From positions 1 through 61,194 of IMG/VR virus record IMGVR_UViG_3300047388_000109: a stretch of DNA of 61,194 bases, one strand, 5' to 3'. The translations under genes were made by a program, and so were the position numbers. The notes under the pieces are model-generated. The model made no database searches. It saw only the letters and a list, made by a program, of their open reading frames with translations, and had not been told where the DNA came from. The DNA is from a virus. Taxonomy: Duplodnaviria; Caudoviricetes. Positions 3,884 to 61,194 of the stretch are shown in pieces. Position 1 is the first letter of the stretch. Each line of letters starts with the position of its first letter.

Positions 3884-4416
3884 GACCAACCCTTAGAGAG
3901 GCAATGGCGATGACCATCGCCCACGGCGACCTGCGCCACAACATCCTGCGCGAGACCGGTGCTGACCGCATCGGAGCCCTCGGCCGCGCCGATCCACTGG
4001 GGGCCGCGCTCTGGCGCGTCTCGGACGACCACGACCACCGCTCGATGATCGCCGCCACCCGGATGCTCGCGCAGCAGCTGCGCCGGTCCCGGGAGTCGCT
4101 TCCCATCCTGATGCGTCTGGCCTCGGCCGTCATCCGAGAGTGGCTGGACAACAAGTGCCGGAAGTGCAAGGGCCGGGGTTTCATGATGAACGAGGAGCAG
4201 GTGGTTCACGTCTGCACGCACTGCCGTGGGGAGACCATCCGCCGGCCGTCGGACGCCGAGCGCTGCCGAGCCCTGAAGATCGACCGCCGGGCATACCCCA
4301 AGTGGGAGCGCCGGTTCGCCGACGCCCACGCCGTAGTCGCCAACGCCAACGACGCCGCCCGCCGGCAAGTCGCGCGTCAGCTGGAGCGCGGTTGGCGTGC
4401 TGAGCTGGTCGACTGA
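3880..4416 (+). CDS. late antitermination protein Q-like (Zn finger)
   Basis: CRKCKGRG...CTHCRGE finger; last gene before a promoter-terminator-lysis block. Confidence 0.7.
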   Translation: MRPTLREAMAMTIAHGDLRHNILRETGADRIGALGRADPLGAALWRVSDDHDHRSMIAATRMLAQQLRRSRESLPILMRLASAVIREWLDNKCRKCKGRGFMMNEEQVVHVCTHCRGETIRRPSDAERCRALKIDRRAYPKWERRFADAHAVVANANDAARRQVARQLERGWRAELVD

Positions 4417-53484: not shown

Positions 53485-54785
53485 TGGCCTACGACGAAGA
53501 CGCGTCCTACCTTGGCAGCAGCCAAGGCACACCAAAGAACTACGGCCCAAGCAACATCGACATGAAGGGCTACACGCGCCTGTCGGGTGCCGAGTCTGAC
53601 CCTGCCTACCCTGCGTACAAGGCTTCGATTGCGCCGCCACCTGAGGCTGCTGCCCCAGCGCCAGCTCCTGTCGCCTCGTATCGCGCTGCTATGGACCCAG
53701 ACAATCCGGGTGGCGGTCAGCCGGTGGACCAGCCACAGAGCCGTGGTGTGCCGTCGTGGTGGGACAAGCCTGTGACAGACACGATGCGTGACATCTCAAG
53801 TCACCAGTGGTTCGGTGGTCCGACACAGAATGCCGTGAGCCAACTCGGCGTCAACATCAGCGGGCCGCGCACCGGCGAGGACCGTTCTGCCGGCGCTGGC
53901 TACAACGACACCCAGTCAGTGACCGTGCCAGCTGGCGGTAGAGTGAAGCCGGCGATGACGTTCCCAACGGACCCCGACGCCAACCTGCCAACCGCTCCTG
54001 TGCAACCGTACGGGCAGGTGGTGCAGGCGGCCAACCAAGCGATGGCGAACAACTACAGCGACCGTCTTGCGGCTGAAGACGCGCGCCGGCCGAACTCGCA
54101 AGAGCTGGAGTCCGCCAAGAATGACGCGCGTATCGCACGTTTCCGCGCCACTGACGGTGCCGACATGATCCTCGGCAGCAACCGCTTGTATGGTGCGCAG
54201 CGAGCTGCCATCGTACAGAACGCGGTCGACGCTACAGCCAACGCAACACGCCTCGACAACTTGGCGCGCGGCGCATCTCAGGTGACGCCACCGAATCTCG
54301 TGCAAGGCGCGGTCGCTCAGACCGAGGCCGATCAGAAGGCTCGAAGCGGTTCGTTCGACCAACAGAAGGGGAGCGTCGCGGTTGCTGGCGGGAAGCAGGC
54401 GCTGCAAAAGGGCGCACAGGAACTTACTGCCAGCGGGCTCCAGCTGCACACCGCGCAACACCTCGCCGATCTTCAGAAGCGTGCGCTCTCTGGGGACACG
54501 AAGGCCAACGACATGCTCGCGCTGTACCAGAAGGCGCAGTCTGGCAAGGGCGGACCGATCACCGAGGAAGACAAACTCAAGCTGTACGACGACATGGTCA
54601 GTCGCGCCGTTGCGATGGGCGGACCGGAAGCGTACAAGTCGCTGCCTGACTTCCAGACGCTGTCGGCGCACATGGACGGACGCGCCACGCCGCCGCCGGC
54701 CGATTGGATGGCGCGAGCCAAGGCCGCGAACCCGGGAATGTCCGATGAAGAATTGACCGCGAATTACGCCAAGAAAGCACGCTGA
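53484..54785 (+). CDS. putative internal virion/ejection protein
   Basis: TAATG and TGATG coupling; Ala/Gln-rich; precedes the giant ORF. Confidence 0.7.
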   Translation: MAYDEDASYLGSSQGTPKNYGPSNIDMKGYTRLSGAESDPAYPAYKASIAPPPEAAAPAPAPVASYRAAMDPDNPGGGQPVDQPQSRGVPSWWDKPVTDTMRDISSHQWFGGPTQNAVSQLGVNISGPRTGEDRSAGAGYNDTQSVTVPAGGRVKPAMTFPTDPDANLPTAPVQPYGQVVQAANQAMANNYSDRLAAEDARRPNSQELESAKNDARIARFRATDGADMILGSNRLYGAQRAAIVQNAVDATANATRLDNLARGASQVTPPNLVQGAVAQTEADQKARSGSFDQQKGSVAVAGGKQALQKGAQELTASGLQLHTAQHLADLQKRALSGDTKANDMLALYQKAQSGKGGPITEEDKLKLYDDMVSRAVAMGGPEAYKSLPDFQTLSAHMDGRATPPPADWMARAKAANPGMSDEELTANYAKKAR

Positions 54786-57700
54786 TGCCTTTTGTTGATC
54801 CCGACAGCCTGCCTCAGGCAGGTGGGAAGTTTGTCGACCCCGATGACATCAGAAGCGCCTCTGGCGAGATTGGTGCAGCTGCCAAGCGCGGCCTATACCA
54901 AGGCGTTACCCAGATTGGTGGCGCGCTTCAGACGCCAGCCGAACGGCTGGGCATGGAGCCCGGTATCGTCTCGCGCGCAGGAAAGGCGGTCGAGGAGTAC
55001 GGCAAGGCCGGCGCGGAGCGCAACGCTCCGCAGGAGACCCTGCACGGACCGGTCACGAACTTCGCCTCTCAGGCAGCCGAAGGGCTGACCTCGTTCGCTC
55101 CAACTCTGGCCGCTCAGGCCGGGGTCGGTGCGGCCGTGGGGTCGGTCGCCGGCCCAGTAGGGACCGTTGTGGGCGGGGCGCTGGGAGCTGGCGGCTTCAC
55201 CGCCGGGCAGGTCTGGCACGAAGAGTACCAGAAGGCGCTCGCCGCCGATAAGTCGCCGGACGCGGCGCGCGACCACGCCGACAAGTCTGCCGAGCTGCAA
55301 GGCGGCCTGATGGCCGGGGCCGGCGGCGTCGCCGGTGGCGTTGCCAAGGGAGCCGGGATCGTCGGCAAGGCGCTTGGATACGGTGCCAAAGACGCGGCCG
55401 AGGCCGGGACCAAGGCCATCGGCAAGAAGTTCGGACCGGAGTTCGCCAAGGGAGCGGCCGAGACGACCGCCGTCAACACAGGCGCGACCGTCGGCGGCGC
55501 GGCCGGACAGGCGGCCATCGACTCCGGCGACAATCTGAACACCGAGAGCCCGGGAGATGCGGCGCTCCACGCCGTCATGCCGGCCCTCGGGGCGTCCGTC
55601 GGATTCCTGCCGCTGGCGGCTCTGGGAGCCCACACAAACGTCTCTCACGCCAAGATGGTAGCTTCGGTGCTCGCCAACCCGAACGCCGCCCCAAAGGCCC
55701 GCGCAGGGGCCGTCAAGCAGGTGTTCGACGCCATGCAGAAGGCCAACCCGGAGCAGGCCAACACATGGGCCCTGAATGCCGGGGAAGCCCTGCACGCCCG
55801 CGCGCCTATCGGGGTCGACTCCAGCTGGACCGAAGGTCTCCACCCAAGCGTCTTCCCTGAGCTGGCCGAACCAGCCAAGGAACCTCTCGCCCTGCCGGCC
55901 CCCGGTCAGGTCGCGATTCCGGCCGACCAGCGCGACTTCGGTCCGTTCGAGCAGTCCAACGAGGCCGATCAGGCTGCCATCGAGCGCGACGCCGCGCGCT
56001 CCAAGTACGAGGCAGAGCAGGCCACCCTTCGCGGCGACCCGCTGACGGCCGCTGCCTTCGCTGGCCGCGCCAGCGGTGCCGTCGACGCCAAGGCCGCAGA
56101 GCGCGCCGCCGAGATTCCGGCCGCCGAGGTCGAGGAGCAGAAGCCGACAGGCGACGCCGGGACCGACCAGTCCAACATGAACATCCGCTCCGCGCTGGGC
56201 AACCAGCCGCAGCTCTCGCTCGCCGACGCGCAAGCGAAGATCGCCGCCATCAACGGCAGCGGTGAAAGCCCGAACAACTACTCTGTTGTTCCGCACCCGA
56301 AGGGCGGCTACGGCATCGTACCCGACCACTTCATCACCCCACAAGTCAAAGAACTGTACGCGGGCCTACAGAGCCGTGGTACACCAGAGCGCGCGCCGAA
56401 CCTGACTCCGTTCGATCTCGAACGCGCGCAGGCTCACGCCGAGGACCTGACGTCGCAGTCCGGCGTCGAGCACGAGGTCGTGCCGCACCCTTACGCCCGG
56501 GACAAGTTCCTTGTTCAGGAAAAGGATGCGTTCACGTCACGTGAACAACCGAGAGAGGTCCTACAAGAGCAAGGCGCAGGAGGCGTACTTCAACGCGAAC
56601 CGGGCGAAGCTGGAGTCAGAGGGGGTGAACGTGGACGAGTGGAACCGGTCGTCCAAGGGGAAGAAGCTGCCCGCCAAGGTGAAGCAGCCCGTGTCGAAGA
56701 AGGTCCTGCAACGGGGGTACAGCAAGACGTAGCACGCCACGGCGTTAAGCTGCCTGAGGTCCCGGCCAAGACCAACATGGCAAGCGACGGGTACATCGGC
56801 ATCACCAAGCCGGAAGATGCGCGCGCGGTGTCCAGCCTGATCGACGCGTCGGTTGCGGCCGGCCACTCGCCAGAGCTGTTCCGTGGCGCTGGCATCATCA
56901 AGAACCAGAAGAACGACCCGTACTCAGCGCCGATGGCGGCGTTCGCGCACAACAAACTCATCTCGATCCACGAGAGCGTGCTCGGAGACGATGCGGCGCA
57001 GCGACCGCACCAGTTGGCGCACGAGGGTGGTCACCTGATTGACGCCAACCCGGCGACCGGAGGCATGCACTCCAACGAGCACCCGGCGTTCCGCATCAAG
57101 ACCAACGCTGACGGCTCTCGTGAGGCAGAGGGTGGTATTATGAAGGCGGCTGTTGCCGCGTTCCAGAACACGAACTCTCTCACAGGCAACTCCCTCTCCT
57201 ACCCGCTGCGCGACTTCAACCGCAAGGACTTCAAGAGACAGGGGTACGACTCCGCTCACCAGATGTCGCAGGTTCTGGAGAACGAGGTGTTCGCCCAGCT
57301 CAGCCGCATGTACGGGGAGAACCCGACGGCGATGATGTACGAGCACCCAGAAGCATACGCACTATTTAAGGAGATGCACGATGGAACGAAGAAATCCTCA
57401 GGAATCGCAGGACTTGAGCGCTCGCTACGGGGAGCGCTTCAACGCCGCGATCAGACCGGACGTGTACGACAAGGTGAGCCCGCAGGAGATGGACGCGCGG
57501 CAGAAGCAGGCGCTGGAGACCGGGGTGCCGATAACGGAGTGGCACGGGTATCCAACGAGTCTCGCAAACCTCTGGCCGTCGATGAAGGCGAACATGGCGG
57601 CACCGCTGACCGAGGCGGCGCAGGAAAGCCAGCAACCCGCGAAGACTTCAAGCCCGGCCGCGTAGGCGATCTTCTCAACAAGAAGGACTGGGCTGTCCTC

Positions 57701-60700
57701 AGCGCGGAGAACCCGGACGCCAAGCCGGCCGCGCCCGCAGCGAACAAGGCTGCTACCGCGCGCCTCGAAGCTGACCTGAAGCGGCTTGGCGTAGACTACC
57801 AACCGGTCAGAGGCAAGTACGGTGGGCCCGAGGAGAACTCGTTCGCCGTAACCGGCATCACGCCTGAGCAAGCGCGCACGCTGCGCGACCTGTACGGACA
57901 GGATTCGATCCTGACCAACAAGGGCTTCGAGCACAAGGACGGCTCTATCACGCCGGCGAAGTCTATCGCCGCCAAGGCCCCTGACGAAGCAGACTACTAC
58001 ACGCAGATGCCGGACGGTACCAAGTGGGCCGCCGACATGGACTGGGACGCGCGCACAGCTCCGACGCGTCCGCTCGCCGTGCGCGATGGCACAGTCAAGC
58101 GCGGCGCAGATAGCGCCATCGCCATCCGAGAGGGCGCGGAGATTCGCGGTCTGCCTCGCTACGCCGGCCTGCCGGACATCGCGCGCGCGCTCAACAACCT
58201 CGCGCCGAAGCGCAGCTACGACAAGGTGGCCGACATCAAGTCGGCGACCAAACAGCTGTTCAGCGAGATCGCCTACCAGCTCAAGCAAGCGAAGAGCGGG
58301 CTCGGCTGGTACGCCGGCGATGTCCAGAAGGCGTGGAGATGGGCTGCGCAAGAACACCCTGAGCTGGCGCACGATCCGATCAAGCGGCAGCTGGTGTCGA
58401 TCATCACCGGACTCCACTCGCCCAGCATCAAGGCTCGCAAGAACTTCACGTACGGGCTGATCCAGTACGAGCACTACAAAGAGAACGGACAGTTCTCGCC
58501 GATCATCGACCCGACGACCGGCCAGCGCTGGAGCGGCAAGCCTGCGCACGAGCAGGCGATTACGCACGTCAACCAGATGCTGGCGGACACCGCCCGCTGG
58601 GATGGCGACCCTGAGCACGGTGTTGTGCAGTGGCTTCTCACCGAGCACCCGAAGTCTGTGCTCGCCGCAGAGCGTGCGCGCTATGGCGTCTGGGCGCGCG
58701 AACAGAAGGGTGCCGAGTCGTCAGACCCCGGAGCGTGGCTGGACAGCGTTCCTCACACGGCAGACCTCAGCGACAAGGAACTTGGCATCAACGCCAACAA
58801 GTCGCCGGGCGACGTCGGATTCAAGAGCCCGTCGCTCAAGGTAGGCGAGGACAAGGAACTCTACCTCGGCACTGAGATGTTTGGTCCGAAGGTCGGGCCT
58901 TTCATCGGCAACCTGAACGGCATGAACACGCACATCACGGTCGACGTGTGGGCGACGCGCACGCTGCGCAGACTGTTCGGTACGCTGCCAACCAAGGTCA
59001 GCGAAGACGGCGGCATCGAGGGTGAAGGTCCAACGCCACAAGAACGCAACATCGTCACGATGATGCTGCGTCAAGCTGCGCACGATCCTGAGCTACAGAA
59101 GCTGGGCATCAAGAACGGACCCGATGCGCAAGGCGTGACGTGGTTCTTCGAGCAGCAACTTTATGATACAATAACGAAGGGAACCGAGTCAGGGTTCTTC
59201 TCAGACGGAGCACGCGACTATGTTGAATCAAAAGGCCATATCGTTGATGAGCAGGGTGCTGGCGCTCCAACGCTCACAGACGCCAGCGTCCATGCGCGGC
59301 CAAGCGAAGACGAAGCCAACGCAGCAGCCCAGCGCATCGCCGCAGAGCGTCCGCTCTACACCGACAAGCCCCGCAAGACTGACGTCTTCTTCTCCGCGCT
59401 CTCCCGCGCCGTAGACGAGAAGGCTCCGTTCGCCAAGGACGGCACCGCCAACGCGCAGATGCTGCGCAACTGGCTCGACGCCCGCACCAAGGACGGCACG
59501 ATCAAGCGCGACGAGCTACAGTGGACCGGGCTCGACGACTACCTGAAACTGCGCGACGGCAAGATCACCCGCGACGAGGTCAACCAGTTCCTCGACCATA
59601 ACGGCGTGAAGGTCACGGAGACGATGTTGAACGATAGCAGCGGCCGTGAAGCCGCCGAACGCGCGCGTCGGCTACACAACGTATACGCTGAAGCCGGGAA
59701 TCGTGTTGCCCATCTGAAGCAAATGATTGCTCCCGGCTCGCCTTACGCCAAGTCGATGCGCGACGAAGCAACCCAGAAGTTGCCGGAGGCGGAATCGGCT
59801 TTGGTTGAGGCCCGCGCCAATCTGGACAAGTCTGCGGCAGAAGCCAAGACGACCATCGACTCCAACAATCCAACTCGTTACGCCGACCGCGTCCTCCCCG
59901 GCGGCAAGAACTACCGCGAGTTGCTGCTGACGCTGCCGGGTGGCTCTGAGGCTACCAAGAAATTCGAGGTCTACGACCAAGGCACAGGAGAGGTTGTAGG
60001 CACATACACCTCTGAAGCAGCGGCCGAGGCTCACGCCAATCGAGTCGGCAACTACGCGGTGGACTCCGTTCGCGTCAATGGTGCAGGCTTCCAATCGTCG
60101 CACTTCACCCAACCCAACATCCTCGCCCACATCCGCTTCAACGAGCGCACCGACGCCAACGGCAAGAAGGTTCTCTTCATCGAGGAGATTCAATCCGACT
60201 GGGCGCAGAAGGGGCGGAAGGAAGGGTTTGACAGCCCGGCCAAAACGATCGAGCAACAGGCGGAGCTTCGGAAACAGCGCGATGTGCTGGTCGAGAAGCT
60301 CGACGATCTGAAGGAAGGAACGCCGCAGCACGGCGAGGTCATTGCGCACATCCGACAGCTCAACGAGGAAATCCAGAACACGCAAGCGTACAAGAAAGGC
60401 GTCCCGAACGCCCCCTTCGTTGGCAAGACCGAAGCATGGGTCGCGCTCGCGCTCAAGCGCATGATCCGCTACGCCGCAGACAACGGCTTCGACCGCGTCG
60501 CGTGGACGACCGGCGAGCAGCAGGCGTCGCGGGGCGACCTGAGCAAGCAAGTAGAGGCAGTTCGTGCTACCAAGGCCAAAGACGGAACGTATGATCTTGC
60601 TGTAGCACAGAGTGGATCGAGGGGCCGCTTTGAGGTGTTGGCTGACGGCATAAAAGAGTCTGACATAGAGACTCACGTTGGCAAAGACTTGGCGAAAAAA

Positions 60701-61194
60701 ATAGTAGAGCGCGGCGGCGGAACATACAAGGGCGTCGACCTCGCCGTCGGCGGCGAAGGCATGAAGTCCTTCTACGACAAGATCGTCCCCAACGTCGCCA
60801 ACGACGTGCTGAAGAAGCTGGGTGGCGGACGGGTGGAAGATGTGGCGGTTGATACCGGTGATCGTGTGATCGACGCGCGGCCCGGAAAGAATAGTGACGA
60901 GGTCGTAGAGCATTCACGTCAACAAGGCTTCGACATCACGCCTGCCATGAAGGACAAGGTCGTCGGCGGTCAGCCTCTGTTCGTGCGCGAAGACGGCACC
61001 AAGGCCACCGACAAGAGCGTGCTTCCTCCGATCACCGGCGGCAAGGCTGCCGACTCCGAGGCTCGCTTCGACAAGAACGGTGAGGTGCTGCACGAAGAGG
61101 GCACCGAGCCGCACGTGTTTGACCCGAAGCACCTTGAGCCTTGGATGCGCGGTCTGACGCACGATCAGATCGAAACCCTGCGCAAGGCCGGCGG
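54785..61194 (+). CDS. giant polyvalent internal virion protein (partial, more than 2100 aa)
   Basis: ATG 54785 (MPFVDPD); no stop in the segments I translated and no track ORF in this frame up to the window edge; HEGGH, SAENP, VDVW and EEIQSDW motifs. Confidence 0.85.
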   Translation, partial: MPFVDPDSLPQAGGKFVDPDDIRSASGEIGAAAKRGLYQGVTQIGGALQTPAERLGMEPGIVSRAGKAVEEYGKAGAERNAPQETLHGPVTNFASQAAEGLTSFAPTLAAQAGVGAAVGSVAGPVGTVVGGALGAGGFTAGQVWHEEYQKALAADKSPDAARDHADKSAELQGGLMAGAGGVAGGVAKGAGIVGKALGYGAKDAAEAGTKAIGKKFGPEFAKGAAETTAVNTGATVGGAAGQAAIDSGDNLNTESPGDAALHAVMPALGASVGFLPLAALGAHTNVSHAKMVASVLANPNAAPKARAGAVKQVFDAMQKANPEQANTWALNAGEALHARAPIGVDSSWTEGLHPSVFPELAEPAKEPLALPAPGQVAIPADQRDFGPFEQSNEADQAAIERDAARSKYEAEQATLRGDPLTAAAFAGRASGAVDAKAAERAAEIPAAEVEEQKPTGDAGTDQSNMNIRSALGNQPQLSLADAQAKIAAINGSGESPNNYSVVPHPKGGYGIVPDHFITPQVKELYAGLQSRGTPERAPNLTPFDLERAQAHAEDLTSQSGVEHEVVPHPYARDKFLVQEKDAFTSREQPREVLQEQGAGGVLQREPGEAGVRGGERGRVEPVVQGEEAARQGEAARVEEGPATGVQQDVARHGVKLPEVPAKTNMASDGYIGITKPEDARAVSSLIDASVAAGHSPELFRGAGIIKNQKNDPYSAPMAAFAHNKLISIHESVLGDDAAQRPHQLAHEGGHLIDANPATGGMHSNEHPAFRIKTNADGSREAEGGIMKAAVAAFQNTNSLTGNSLSYPLRDFNRKDFKRQGYDSAHQMSQVLENEVFAQLSRMYGENPTAMMYEHPEAYALFKEMHDGTKKSSGIAGLERSLRGALQRRDQTGRVRQGEPAGDGRAAEAGAGDRGADNGVARVSNESRKPLAVDEGEHGGTADRGGAGKPATREDFKPGRVGDLLNKKDWAVLSAENPDAKPAAPAANKAATARLEADLKRLGVDYQPVRGKYGGPEENSFAVTGITPEQARTLRDLYGQDSILTNKGFEHKDGSITPAKSIAAKAPDEADYYTQMPDGTKWAADMDWDARTAPTRPLAVRDGTVKRGADSAIAIREGAEIRGLPRYAGLPDIARALNNLAPKRSYDKVADIKSATKQLFSEIAYQLKQAKSGLGWYAGDVQKAWRWAAQEHPELAHDPIKRQLVSIITGLHSPSIKARKNFTYGLIQYEHYKENGQFSPIIDPTTGQRWSGKPAHEQAITHVNQMLADTARWDGDPEHGVVQWLLTEHPKSVLAAERARYGVWAREQKGAESSDPGAWLDSVPHTADLSDKELGINANKSPGDVGFKSPSLKVGEDKELYLGTEMFGPKVGPFIGNLNGMNTHITVDVWATRTLRRLFGTLPTKVSEDGGIEGEGPTPQERNIVTMMLRQAAHDPELQKLGIKNGPDAQGVTWFFEQQLYDTITKGTESGFFSDGARDYVESKGHIVDEQGAGAPTLTDASVHARPSEDEANAAAQRIAAERPLYTDKPRKTDVFFSALSRAVDEKAPFAKDGTANAQMLRNWLDARTKDGTIKRDELQWTGLDDYLKLRDGKITRDEVNQFLDHNGVKVTETMLNDSSGREAAERARRLHNVYAEAGNRVAHLKQMIAPGSPYAKSMRDEATQKLPEAESALVEARANLDKSAAEAKTTIDSNNPTRYADRVLPGGKNYRELLLTLPGGSEATKKFEVYDQGTGEVVGTYTSEAAAEAHANRVGNYAVDSVRVNGAGFQSSHFTQPNILAHIRFNERTDANGKKVLFIEEIQSDWAQKGRKEGFDSPAKTIEQQAELRKQRDVLVEKLDDLKEGTPQHGEVIAHIRQLNEEIQNTQAYKKGVPNAPFVGKTEAWVALALKRMIRYAADNGFDRVAWTTGEQQASRGDLSKQVEAVRATKAKDGTYDLAVAQSGSRGRFEVLADGIKESDIETHVGKDLAKKIVERGGGTYKGVDLAVGGEGMKSFYDKIVPNVANDVLKKLGGGRVEDVAVDTGDRVIDARPGKNSDEVVEHSRQQGFDITPAMKDKVVGGQPLFVREDGTKATDKSVLPPITGGKAADSEARFDKNGEVLHEEGTEPHVFDPKHLEPWMRGLTHDQIETLRKAG
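56526..56732 (+). CDS. nested +1-frame small protein (YKSKAQ...KLPAKVK)
   Basis: GC3 bias switches to the +1 frame; AGGA upstream of ATG. Confidence 0.55.
   Translation: MRSRHVNNRERSYKSKAQEAYFNANRAKLESEGVNVDEWNRSSKGKKLPAKVKQPVSKKVLQRGYSKT
57381..57665 (+). CDS. nested +1-frame small protein
   Basis: TAAGGAG-N7-ATG; GC3 bias switches to the +1 frame. Confidence 0.6.
   Translation: MERRNPQESQDLSARYGERFNAAIRPDVYDKVSPQEMDARQKQALETGVPITEWHGYPTSLANLWPSMKANMAAPLTEAAQESQQPAKTSSPAA

Follow-up and report, generated by a model that had tools for sequence, protein, structure and literature searches.

Does the largest gene of an uncultivated soil phage hide a second gene in another reading frame and, if it does, has the product of that gene anything to do with the peptidase-like domain beside which it lies? 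The question is raised by the IMG/VR virus record IMGVR_UViG_3300047388_000109 (Duplodnaviria; Caudoviricetes), a record with a CheckV completeness of 94% that we analysed over its complete length of 61,194 bases, referred to below as the window. According to the list of open reading frames (ORFs) and its translation, a giant ORF begins on the plus strand at 54785 and is still open at 61192, where it is cut by the 3′ end of the record after at least 2136 codons. An earlier note, made from the letters of the sequence, had proposed that the linker following the zincin-like domain of this giant protein contains a hidden gene with its own ribosome-binding site, and we found that conservation, start signals and codon periodicity support the proposal. 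By these comparisons positions 57381-57665 are a nested gene in the +1 frame rather than a chance ORF, and we consider it moderately probable that its product, which we call P0002, docks in and controls the adjacent zincin-like peptidase.

The nested ORF (57381..57665, plus strand) encodes 94 amino acids between ATG 57381 and a TAG stop at 57663-57665, and its offset from the first base of the giant ORF, 57381-54785 = 3x865+1, places it in the +1 frame. The sequence TTTAAGGAG at 57365-57373 contains the Shine–Dalgarno-like motif AAGGAG (57368..57373, plus strand), which ends 7 nt before the nested ATG and is read in the giant frame as the K-E of ...FKEMH; the 7-nt spacer (57374-57380) also holds a giant-frame ATG, at 57374. 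Re-reading of the sequence thus confirmed what the earlier note had said of the open giant frame, the spacing of the ribosome-binding site and the length of the product, and its coordinates for HEGGH (57020-57034), like its placing of ENEVFAQ upstream of the ORF, were also right. P0002 contains no cysteine and no signal-like segment.

The openness of the +1 frame is in itself unremarkable, because the giant gene contains 28 stretches in which an alternative frame is open for 60 codons or more and, when the giant frame was resampled with synonymous codons, the span of P0002 was still open in 53% of the trials. The composition of the span is a different matter. The G+C content at the first, second and third codon positions (GC1, GC2 and GC3) of the nested ORF is 0.62, 0.50 and 0.81 in the +1 frame, which is the usual coding pattern of this genome, while the giant-frame GC3 over the same bases is 0.50, compared with 0.76 over the complete giant gene and 0.65-0.84 in seven more of the window's long genes; the observation that G/C-ending codons lie in the +1 frame and many A/T-ending codons in the giant frame therefore stands. 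The alternative-frame GC3 exceeded that of the giant frame by more than 0.05 in only two of the 28 stretches, that of P0002 (+0.28) and one at 56451-56729 (+0.35), the next best value being +0.05, and a sliding GC3 scan gave exactly two switches of frame, at approximately 56510-56735 and 57335-57635. Contigs from other soil metagenome runs span 57301-57857, one (X3) being identical to the window and two (X2 and X4) showing a few differences, with no indel among the differences listed. Those listed within the nested ORF among the contigs of four runs number two (57419 and 57420), too few for a test of codon position.

Evidence that the nested frame belongs to a protein family came from a HMMER pass with P0002 over 1.84 billion representative proteins, which returned P0010 (E 6e-19), a protein of 203 amino acids with two tandem copies of the domain, and P0011 (E 1.6e-11), a protein of 72 amino acids whose first Met aligns with the first Met of P0002. 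A profile search added 29 further predicted members. The family signature is Y16, F20, P26, A44-L45, P50 and W54, and the conserved core comprises residues 1-60, the tail being poorly conserved. Members of approximately 300-316 amino acids (P0013, P0015, P0016, P0023 and P0039) carry two N-terminal P0002-type copies followed by a conserved C-terminal domain of approximately 170 residues, for which no known family was found, and P0018 and P0022 combine a P0002-type domain with a hydrophobic tail. We also considered whether the giant relatives carry the P0002 peptide in frame, as the outcome of a compensated frameshift, and rejected this because the giant proteins P0003-P0006 gave no P0002 match and are without the +1 peptide in their own frame.

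Other searches were negative. Neither Pfam nor PHROGs contained a family matching P0002, and the GenBank phage records gave no match to the region or to either of the small proteins considered in this work. Two profile scans of metagenome contigs, a scan of genome contigs with the small-protein alignment and scans of viral contigs with a single protein or with the first small alignment all gave no match, and nor did DNA scans for the family members of approximately 300 amino acids. Genome contigs scanned with the giant-protein alignment yielded seven loci that share the common C-terminal region (amino acids 1428-2068) only, and no nested ORF of the family was detected in them.

Relatives for which the DNA could be inspected were found on viral contigs. 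A scan with the giant-protein alignment, in which two motifs of the zincin domain only were used, returned nine loci, eight of them matching the zincin domain, and in seven of these eight (L002, L004, L005, L006, L008, L009 and L010) a +1 ORF homologous to P0002 lies just downstream of that domain. A scan with the alignment of the small ORFs returned 21 loci, every one of which has an ATG-started ORF of 75-82 amino acids in the +1 frame of a host ORF that is open for 1153-2823 codons, many of these host frames being cut by the ends of the locus; no copy was free-standing (0/21). A hidden Markov model (HMM) built from 15 of the locus ORFs, with the window sequences left out, recognised P0002 with 25.8 bits (E 5e-10 for a search of one target, Z=1); its scores for P0010 and P0011 were 33.5 and 18.0 bits.

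The earlier note had named interruption of the +1 frame by stops in homologues, or loss of the start region, as outcomes that would speak against a gene. The frame proved to be open in all of the loci found with the small ORFs and in all but one of those found through the zincin domain, the ATG is present in 21/21, and 17 of 19 loci have a GGAG or GAGG motif 4-12 nt ahead of the nested start, compared with approximately 8.5% of positions in the same genes. The exceptions are L002, which has AAGGA instead, and L026, whose first ATG is without such a motif. The place immediately after the zincin domain is kept between clades in which the domain itself is only approximately 24% identical. Remnants of a longer form of the protein beyond the nested stop were looked for in the viral loci and rejected, the +1 frame there soon being full of stops.

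The pattern of substitutions was followed in a codon alignment of 14 non-redundant loci, as the mean pairwise diversity at each codon position. The third-position diversity of the giant frame was 0.44-0.72 in the flanks and fell to 0.13-0.32 in the four alignment windows that touch the overlap, where the most variable position was the first position of the giant frame, which is the third position of the nested frame (0.28-0.37); this held for the two alignment windows that the overlap contains completely and, by a small margin, for the first. With near-identical pairs excluded, pairwise amino-acid identity was 0.70-0.79 for the nested frame, compared with 0.53-0.61 for the giant frame. As judged by sequence comparison, the nested frame is under purifying selection, since substitutions across the relatives follow the codon periodicity of the +1 frame and there is a deficit of synonymous variation in the host frame.

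The giant frame is not simply idle over this span. When the small protein was held fixed and its codons were redrawn from the usage of the gene (2000 trials), the giant frame remained open in at most 0.3% of trials in each of 16 lower-GC loci, and in 12.9% of trials for the window; in the converse resampling, with the giant frame fixed, the nested frame remained open in 1-37% of trials per locus. The loci are mutually related, and the per-locus figures cannot be multiplied into a probability. We conclude that the giant frame is actively kept open and must be read through, because so few of the redrawn sequences leave it open when the small protein alone is preserved. Of the two readings, that of the small protein is under the tighter sequence constraint, and what matters in the giant frame is chiefly that it remains open. 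The description of this part of the giant protein as a G/E/R/A linker holds as far as the low-complexity reading is concerned, whereas the linker is better seen as a by-product reading of the small gene. Comparison of the loci establishes, at the level of sequence, conservation of the two frames, of the start signals and of the fixed place after the zincin domain, and on this basis the nested ORF is probably translated.

The domain that precedes the nested gene (56765..57379, plus strand; amino acids 661-865 of the giant protein) has the motif HEGGHxxD at 57020-57043 and its third-ligand glutamate in ENEVFAQ. Relatives align to amino acids 661-865 around HExxHxxD, YP(F/L) and EEVFAQ and, in the numbering of the domain, H86, E87, H90, D93, Y146, P147, E174, F176, A177 and Q178 are invariant or nearly so. 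The structural model of the domain has a predicted local distance difference test score (pLDDT) of 79 and a predicted template modelling score (pTM) of 0.82, and it combines an HExxH motif and a downstream glutamate ligand on a zincin fold. Compared with 48,161 chains using VIA-align 2, it most resembled the catalytic domain of lethal factor (1yqy; Z 9.9, root mean square deviation 3.9, 152 residues aligned), followed by 4fxq (Z 9.4, 4.5, 155 aligned), PPEP-2 (6fpc; Z 9.0, 3.6, 139 aligned) and PPEP-3 (9g0j; Z 8.5, 3.9, 149 aligned). Foldseek gave weak matches only (all at E of at least 0.087), nearly all of them to zincins, and a Pfam scan of the giant protein of the window gave no peptidase match. 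The available part of PMC5512222 states that the metallopeptidases (MPTases) of polyvalent proteins resemble lethal factor, with which our fold search agrees, and that one phage clade has an Asp three residues past HExxH; it also predicts, as probable, that the MPTase processes the polyprotein of which it is itself a part.

For P0002, the predicted monomer is a small helical unit with helices at residues 6-20, 28-31 and 34-47 and a floppy tail. The model has no convincing neighbour of known fold: its best Foldseek hits were at E 2.2 in the PDB and E 0.26 in BFVD, searches of the Atlas gave nothing usable and VIA-align gave a best Z of 4.2; a search of the PDB with the sequence found no solved relative (best E 0.24). 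Modelled together with the adjacent zincin domain, P0002 gave a complex score of 0.74, the best of three control pairings scoring 0.00, and so reached a mark that is also attained by 58 out of 80 solved complexes and, among mismatched pairs, by 2 of 110. The pLDDT of the partner in the complex is at least 71. It is unlikely that the score reflects memory of a known complex, because P0002 has no solved relative by sequence. On the domain, the confidently predicted interface takes in the edge strand 52-58, residues R80, H82, Q83 and H86 on the HExxH helix, residues 133-136, the conserved YP segment 145-154 and E174; it corresponds to the substrate cleft and includes the zinc ligands H86 and E174. 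On P0002, the predicted contacts fall in residues 9-14, 26-37 and 52-59. The complex model supports P0002 as a predicted cleft-binding partner of the adjacent zincin-like domain. It is compatible with an inhibitor as well as with a cofactor, chaperone or substrate-like segment, and the roles put forward in the earlier note, those of cognate inhibitor, immunity protein or chaperone, are possible on the strength of this structure prediction.

The second switch of frame revealed by the GC3 scan showed that there is not one hidden gene at the domain, as had been supposed, but a pair of nested genes that flank it. The second nested ORF, P0012 (56526-56732, plus strand), precedes the zincin domain and encodes 68 amino acids in the +1 frame from ATG 56526; GC3 is 0.91 in that frame, as against 0.40 for the giant frame. 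Its core assigns it to a very large group of small phage proteins with MPYKSKAQ at the N terminus, those listed being approximately 46-79 amino acids long; a profile search returned 3706 clusters at E ≤0.001 among 4237 candidates, and the 120 clusters that were listed contain no Pfam domain and are named only 'hypothetical protein' or are bare gene-call records. We considered whether the two nested families are related and found no demonstrable relationship: hhalign gave a probability of 0.64% with only a 16-column GV.V.EW motif aligned, and the HMM of the P0002 family scores P0012 at 1-2 bits only.

Genes of the MPYKSKAQ type were located at 76 viral loci. In 63 of these they are free-standing, the other frames being closed; in the other 13 they are nested, in the +1 frame, within a frame that is open for 939-2375 codons, and only one of the 13 nested copies, on the contig of L002, has a zincin domain like that of the window protein (P0001) nearby. 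Some of the free-standing genes directly follow an ORF of more than 1000 codons; at L051, L066 and L044 (~3995-4190) the gene begins a few bases past the stop of such an ORF on the same strand, a layout from which the loss of a single stop codon could yield a nested gene. Because the P0012 family is free-standing at most loci, the overlap looks as if a large ORF had expanded across a small gene that was still alive. The case shows that, of the two, the small gene can be the older, and it suggests that giant ORFs extend over living small genes. The giant-frame reading across the gene (56540-56730 of the window) is a motif rich in G, E, R and Q that recurs in giant ORFs with no other resemblance to one another, and we note that it occurs also in L042, L043, L047, L060, L061, L067, L076, L081 and L090, at 32-70% G+C; it reflects either one old engulfment event or a reading forced by the sequence of the small gene. 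This recurrence accounts for the segment over P0012 being approximately 80% identical between P0003 and the window, where the proteins overall are 47% identical.

Several observations weigh against the reading in which the nested gene encodes a partner of the zincin domain. The monomer model of P0002 is only moderately confident (mean pLDDT 66, rising to 80-87 over residues 11-50), the three runs of the complex gave 0.22, 0.74 and 0.74, so that one of them fell well short, contact agreement was low (at least 3%), and the calibration of the score holds only roughly, custom alignments having been used. One of the eight loci found through the domain, L007 (3001-3420), has an intact zincin relative (HEFGH...D, REEVFAQ) followed by a +1 frame with stops, in which no ORF of the P0002 family was detected, and in L031 the nested ORF lies approximately 100 codons further from the domain; it follows that the partnership is neither obligatory nor strictly adjacent. 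The double domain of the family members of approximately 300 amino acids, together with their C-terminal domain, hints at a role wider than that of a simple peptidase plug. The codon-level tests, finally, drew on a more distant, lower-GC clade, with 24% identity in the zincin domain, together with L002, rather than on the closest relatives of the window.

The alternative that gains most from these points is that the nested gene is translated, but that its product is unconnected with the zincin domain, being, for example, a virion or packaging factor or an effector directed at the host, and that a disordered linker merely tolerates a second frame. We regard this as a real possibility. All of the coding evidence fits it equally well, the extra domains and hydrophobic tails of longer family members agree with it, as do the domain without an ORF and the displaced ORF, and nesting in a linker does not alone imply partnership with the neighbouring domain, because 12 of the 13 nested genes of the MPYKSKAQ type have no such zincin nearby. 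Against it stand the complex model, which reached the mark with its controls at zero and placed the protein on the catalytic cleft, and the position after the domain, which is retained in spite of the extensive divergence of that domain and is retained in L002 even though a different domain lies downstream.

On the reading that we favour, in which P0002 acts on the peptidase, ribosomes in the giant frame would read the DNA of the nested gene as a low-complexity G/E/R/A linker, while others would start at the internal AAGGAG-N7-ATG and produce a helical protein of approximately 60 residues with a loose tail, both frames being kept by selection. The product would lodge in the cleft in which the neighbouring zincin-like domain takes up its substrate and so control the peptidase. 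Its likeliest role would be exercised in the cell that produces the phage, where it would keep the self-processing peptidase of the injected giant protein from acting or would maintain its correct fold: P0002 would be made from the same late mRNA as the giant protein, the peptidase would stay quiet during assembly, and P0002 would be left behind upon injection of the giant protein.

A broader version, which we put forward as unlikely on present evidence, takes the giant polyvalent proteins to have grown in part over living small genes, with the downstream nested product as a cleft keeper that is not injected, so that the peptidase would fire only in the next host. The inter-domain linkers would then be alternative-frame read-throughs of genes that still function, two such genes would bracket the zincin peptidase, and its firing would release the effector domains in the next host only.

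A small gene swallowed by the fusion of two genes could also persist as an untranslated relic, and we considered whether the nested ORF of the window is one. Decay of a nested gene does happen in the window, because a deletion of 9 nt has removed the canonical start from its copy of P0012: in the soil-run contig X2 an insertion of 9 nt behind 56559 restores the canonical ATG, the indel (56559/56560) keeping both frames, and P0151, a protein of 58 amino acids with 98% identity, has the canonical-start form. The window copy of P0012 may start at ATG 56526, or it may be decaying or losing expression. P0002, however, keeps its ATG, a strong AAGGAG at ideal spacing and a coding GC3 in the +1 frame, and across the diverged loci (21/21, plus seven of the eight found through the domain) an intact ATG and stop have been held while substitutions were of the wobble type, which requires ongoing selection on the small protein in the family. 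We therefore think it very improbable that the ORF is a relic.

It is harder still to credit, as judged from stops and start signals, a programmed frameshift out of the giant frame, by which a truncated giant protein would end in the P0002 sequence and no separate small protein would be made. The window has 15 open +1 codons ahead of the ATG (57336-57380), so that such a fusion is formally possible, but in L011, L012 and L024 a +1-frame stop sits one codon ahead of the nested ATG and leaves no room for frameshift entry; moreover, the ATG and the Shine–Dalgarno-like motif are conserved, and P0011 and P0010 start at the aligned Met. Lastly, a chance open frame in G+C-rich DNA, for which the abundance of open stretches and the outcome of resampling might be cited, or an assembly artefact of two compensating indels, hardly merits consideration when homologues reach E 6e-19, the nested layout recurs in independent assemblies, the soil-run contigs across the region have no listed indel and the giant relatives lack the +1 peptide in frame.

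The gene that hosts these overlaps has a G+C content of approximately 64% and stands at the end of the structural module; upstream of it are genes with matches to portal, head-closure, tail-fibre and virion-protein PHROGs. Its protein relatives are 1970-3344 amino acids long, and LPD38, a polyvalent-protein-associated domain, is present in P0003 and in the giant protein of L011, the two relatives that were scanned or had precomputed domain lists, while DUF3293 or DUF7178 is present in several further giant relatives. The giant ORF of the window stops at 2136 codons, ahead of the place that LPD38 occupies in P0003 and L011, and its own scan found DUF3293 only (57698..57910, plus strand; amino acids 972-1042; Pfam PF11697, E 7.7e-10), which is the first recognizable domain past the nested gene; L002 has no DUF3293 at the corresponding place, yet keeps the nested ORF. 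Because of the virion-type genes upstream, the size of the relatives and the LPD38 domains, the host gene is probably a giant polyvalent-type virion protein gene in the sense of Iyer et al. (2017), as far as the available part of that paper (PMC5512222) defines it. The giant gene (54785-61192) is partly covered by contigs of four other soil metagenome runs (X2-X5) with 85-100% likeness, and at several joints these contigs jump 77-273 bases, for example from 56227 to 56450; the skipped bases suggest that linker regions vary in length among related phages.

Overprinted genes are familiar from small viruses, for example the B, K and E genes of phiX174 and p19/p22 of the tombusviruses, and our locus resembles them in its dual-coding DNA, in the greater constraint on one frame and in the suppressed synonymous variation of the host frame. 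The customary view of such cases is that a new gene has arisen within an existing one in a very small genome pressed for space, whereas the genome here is 61 kb and, in the P0012 family, it is clearly the small gene that came first and is widespread. A second comparison is with trans-acting peptidase inhibitors, pro-peptides and immunity proteins whose genes lie beside that of their enzyme. As in such pairs, the small protein is encoded with the enzyme and is predicted to cover its catalytic cleft, and co-expression from one mRNA would tie its amount to that of the enzyme; unlike the inhibitor families, P0002 showed no relation in sequence or fold to any solved protein, and it is a candidate inhibitor whose binding is predicted from a model. 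In the tail chaperone G/GT the second product is an extension made by programmed frameshifting, in contrast with the frame of P0002, which has an independent conserved ATG and Shine–Dalgarno-like motif.

Closer to hand among phages is the embedded spanin class described in the available part of PMC9144972 for phage JC1, in which Rz1 lies wholly within Rz in the +1 frame. The likeness is that of a small gene with its own start wholly inside a larger phage gene in another frame, with products that cooperate physically (for P0002, as predicted). Rz1, however, is a lipoprotein with a signal peptide and a lipobox Cys, encoded in a lysis cassette, and P0002 differs in having neither a Cys nor a signal-like segment, in showing no homology to Rz1 and in lying in a linker of a giant virion gene in the structural module. 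The polyvalent MPTases of Iyer et al. (2017) match the host protein in so far as the available part of PMC5512222 describes giant multidomain phage proteins with an HExxH zincin and an Asp three residues after the motif; in that part the words 'overlap' and 'frameshift' are absent, and neither nested genes nor a trans-acting partner of the MPTase is described. No description of nesting within giant phage genes of the polyvalent or DarB-like kind came up in full-text literature searches, and the available part of PMC9144972 contains none either. Nested genes as such are well known, and overprinting in general is defined in the accessible text of PMC8227390; what seems to be new is a conserved nested gene inside a giant polyvalent-type phage gene.

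Gene callers forbid long overlaps on the same strand, and nested genes of this kind are thus invisible in phage annotation, even where, as here, the genome's largest gene contains one that is conserved among dozens of uncultivated phages. The P0012 family, with more than 3700 clusters that are mostly free-standing, offers an unusually clear order of events, in which an old small gene was later covered by a large ORF. If P0002 does control the zincin peptidase, it would be the first proposed regulator of polyvalent-protein self-processing, a step that has been assumed rather than shown, and it would provide a simple way to probe that step.

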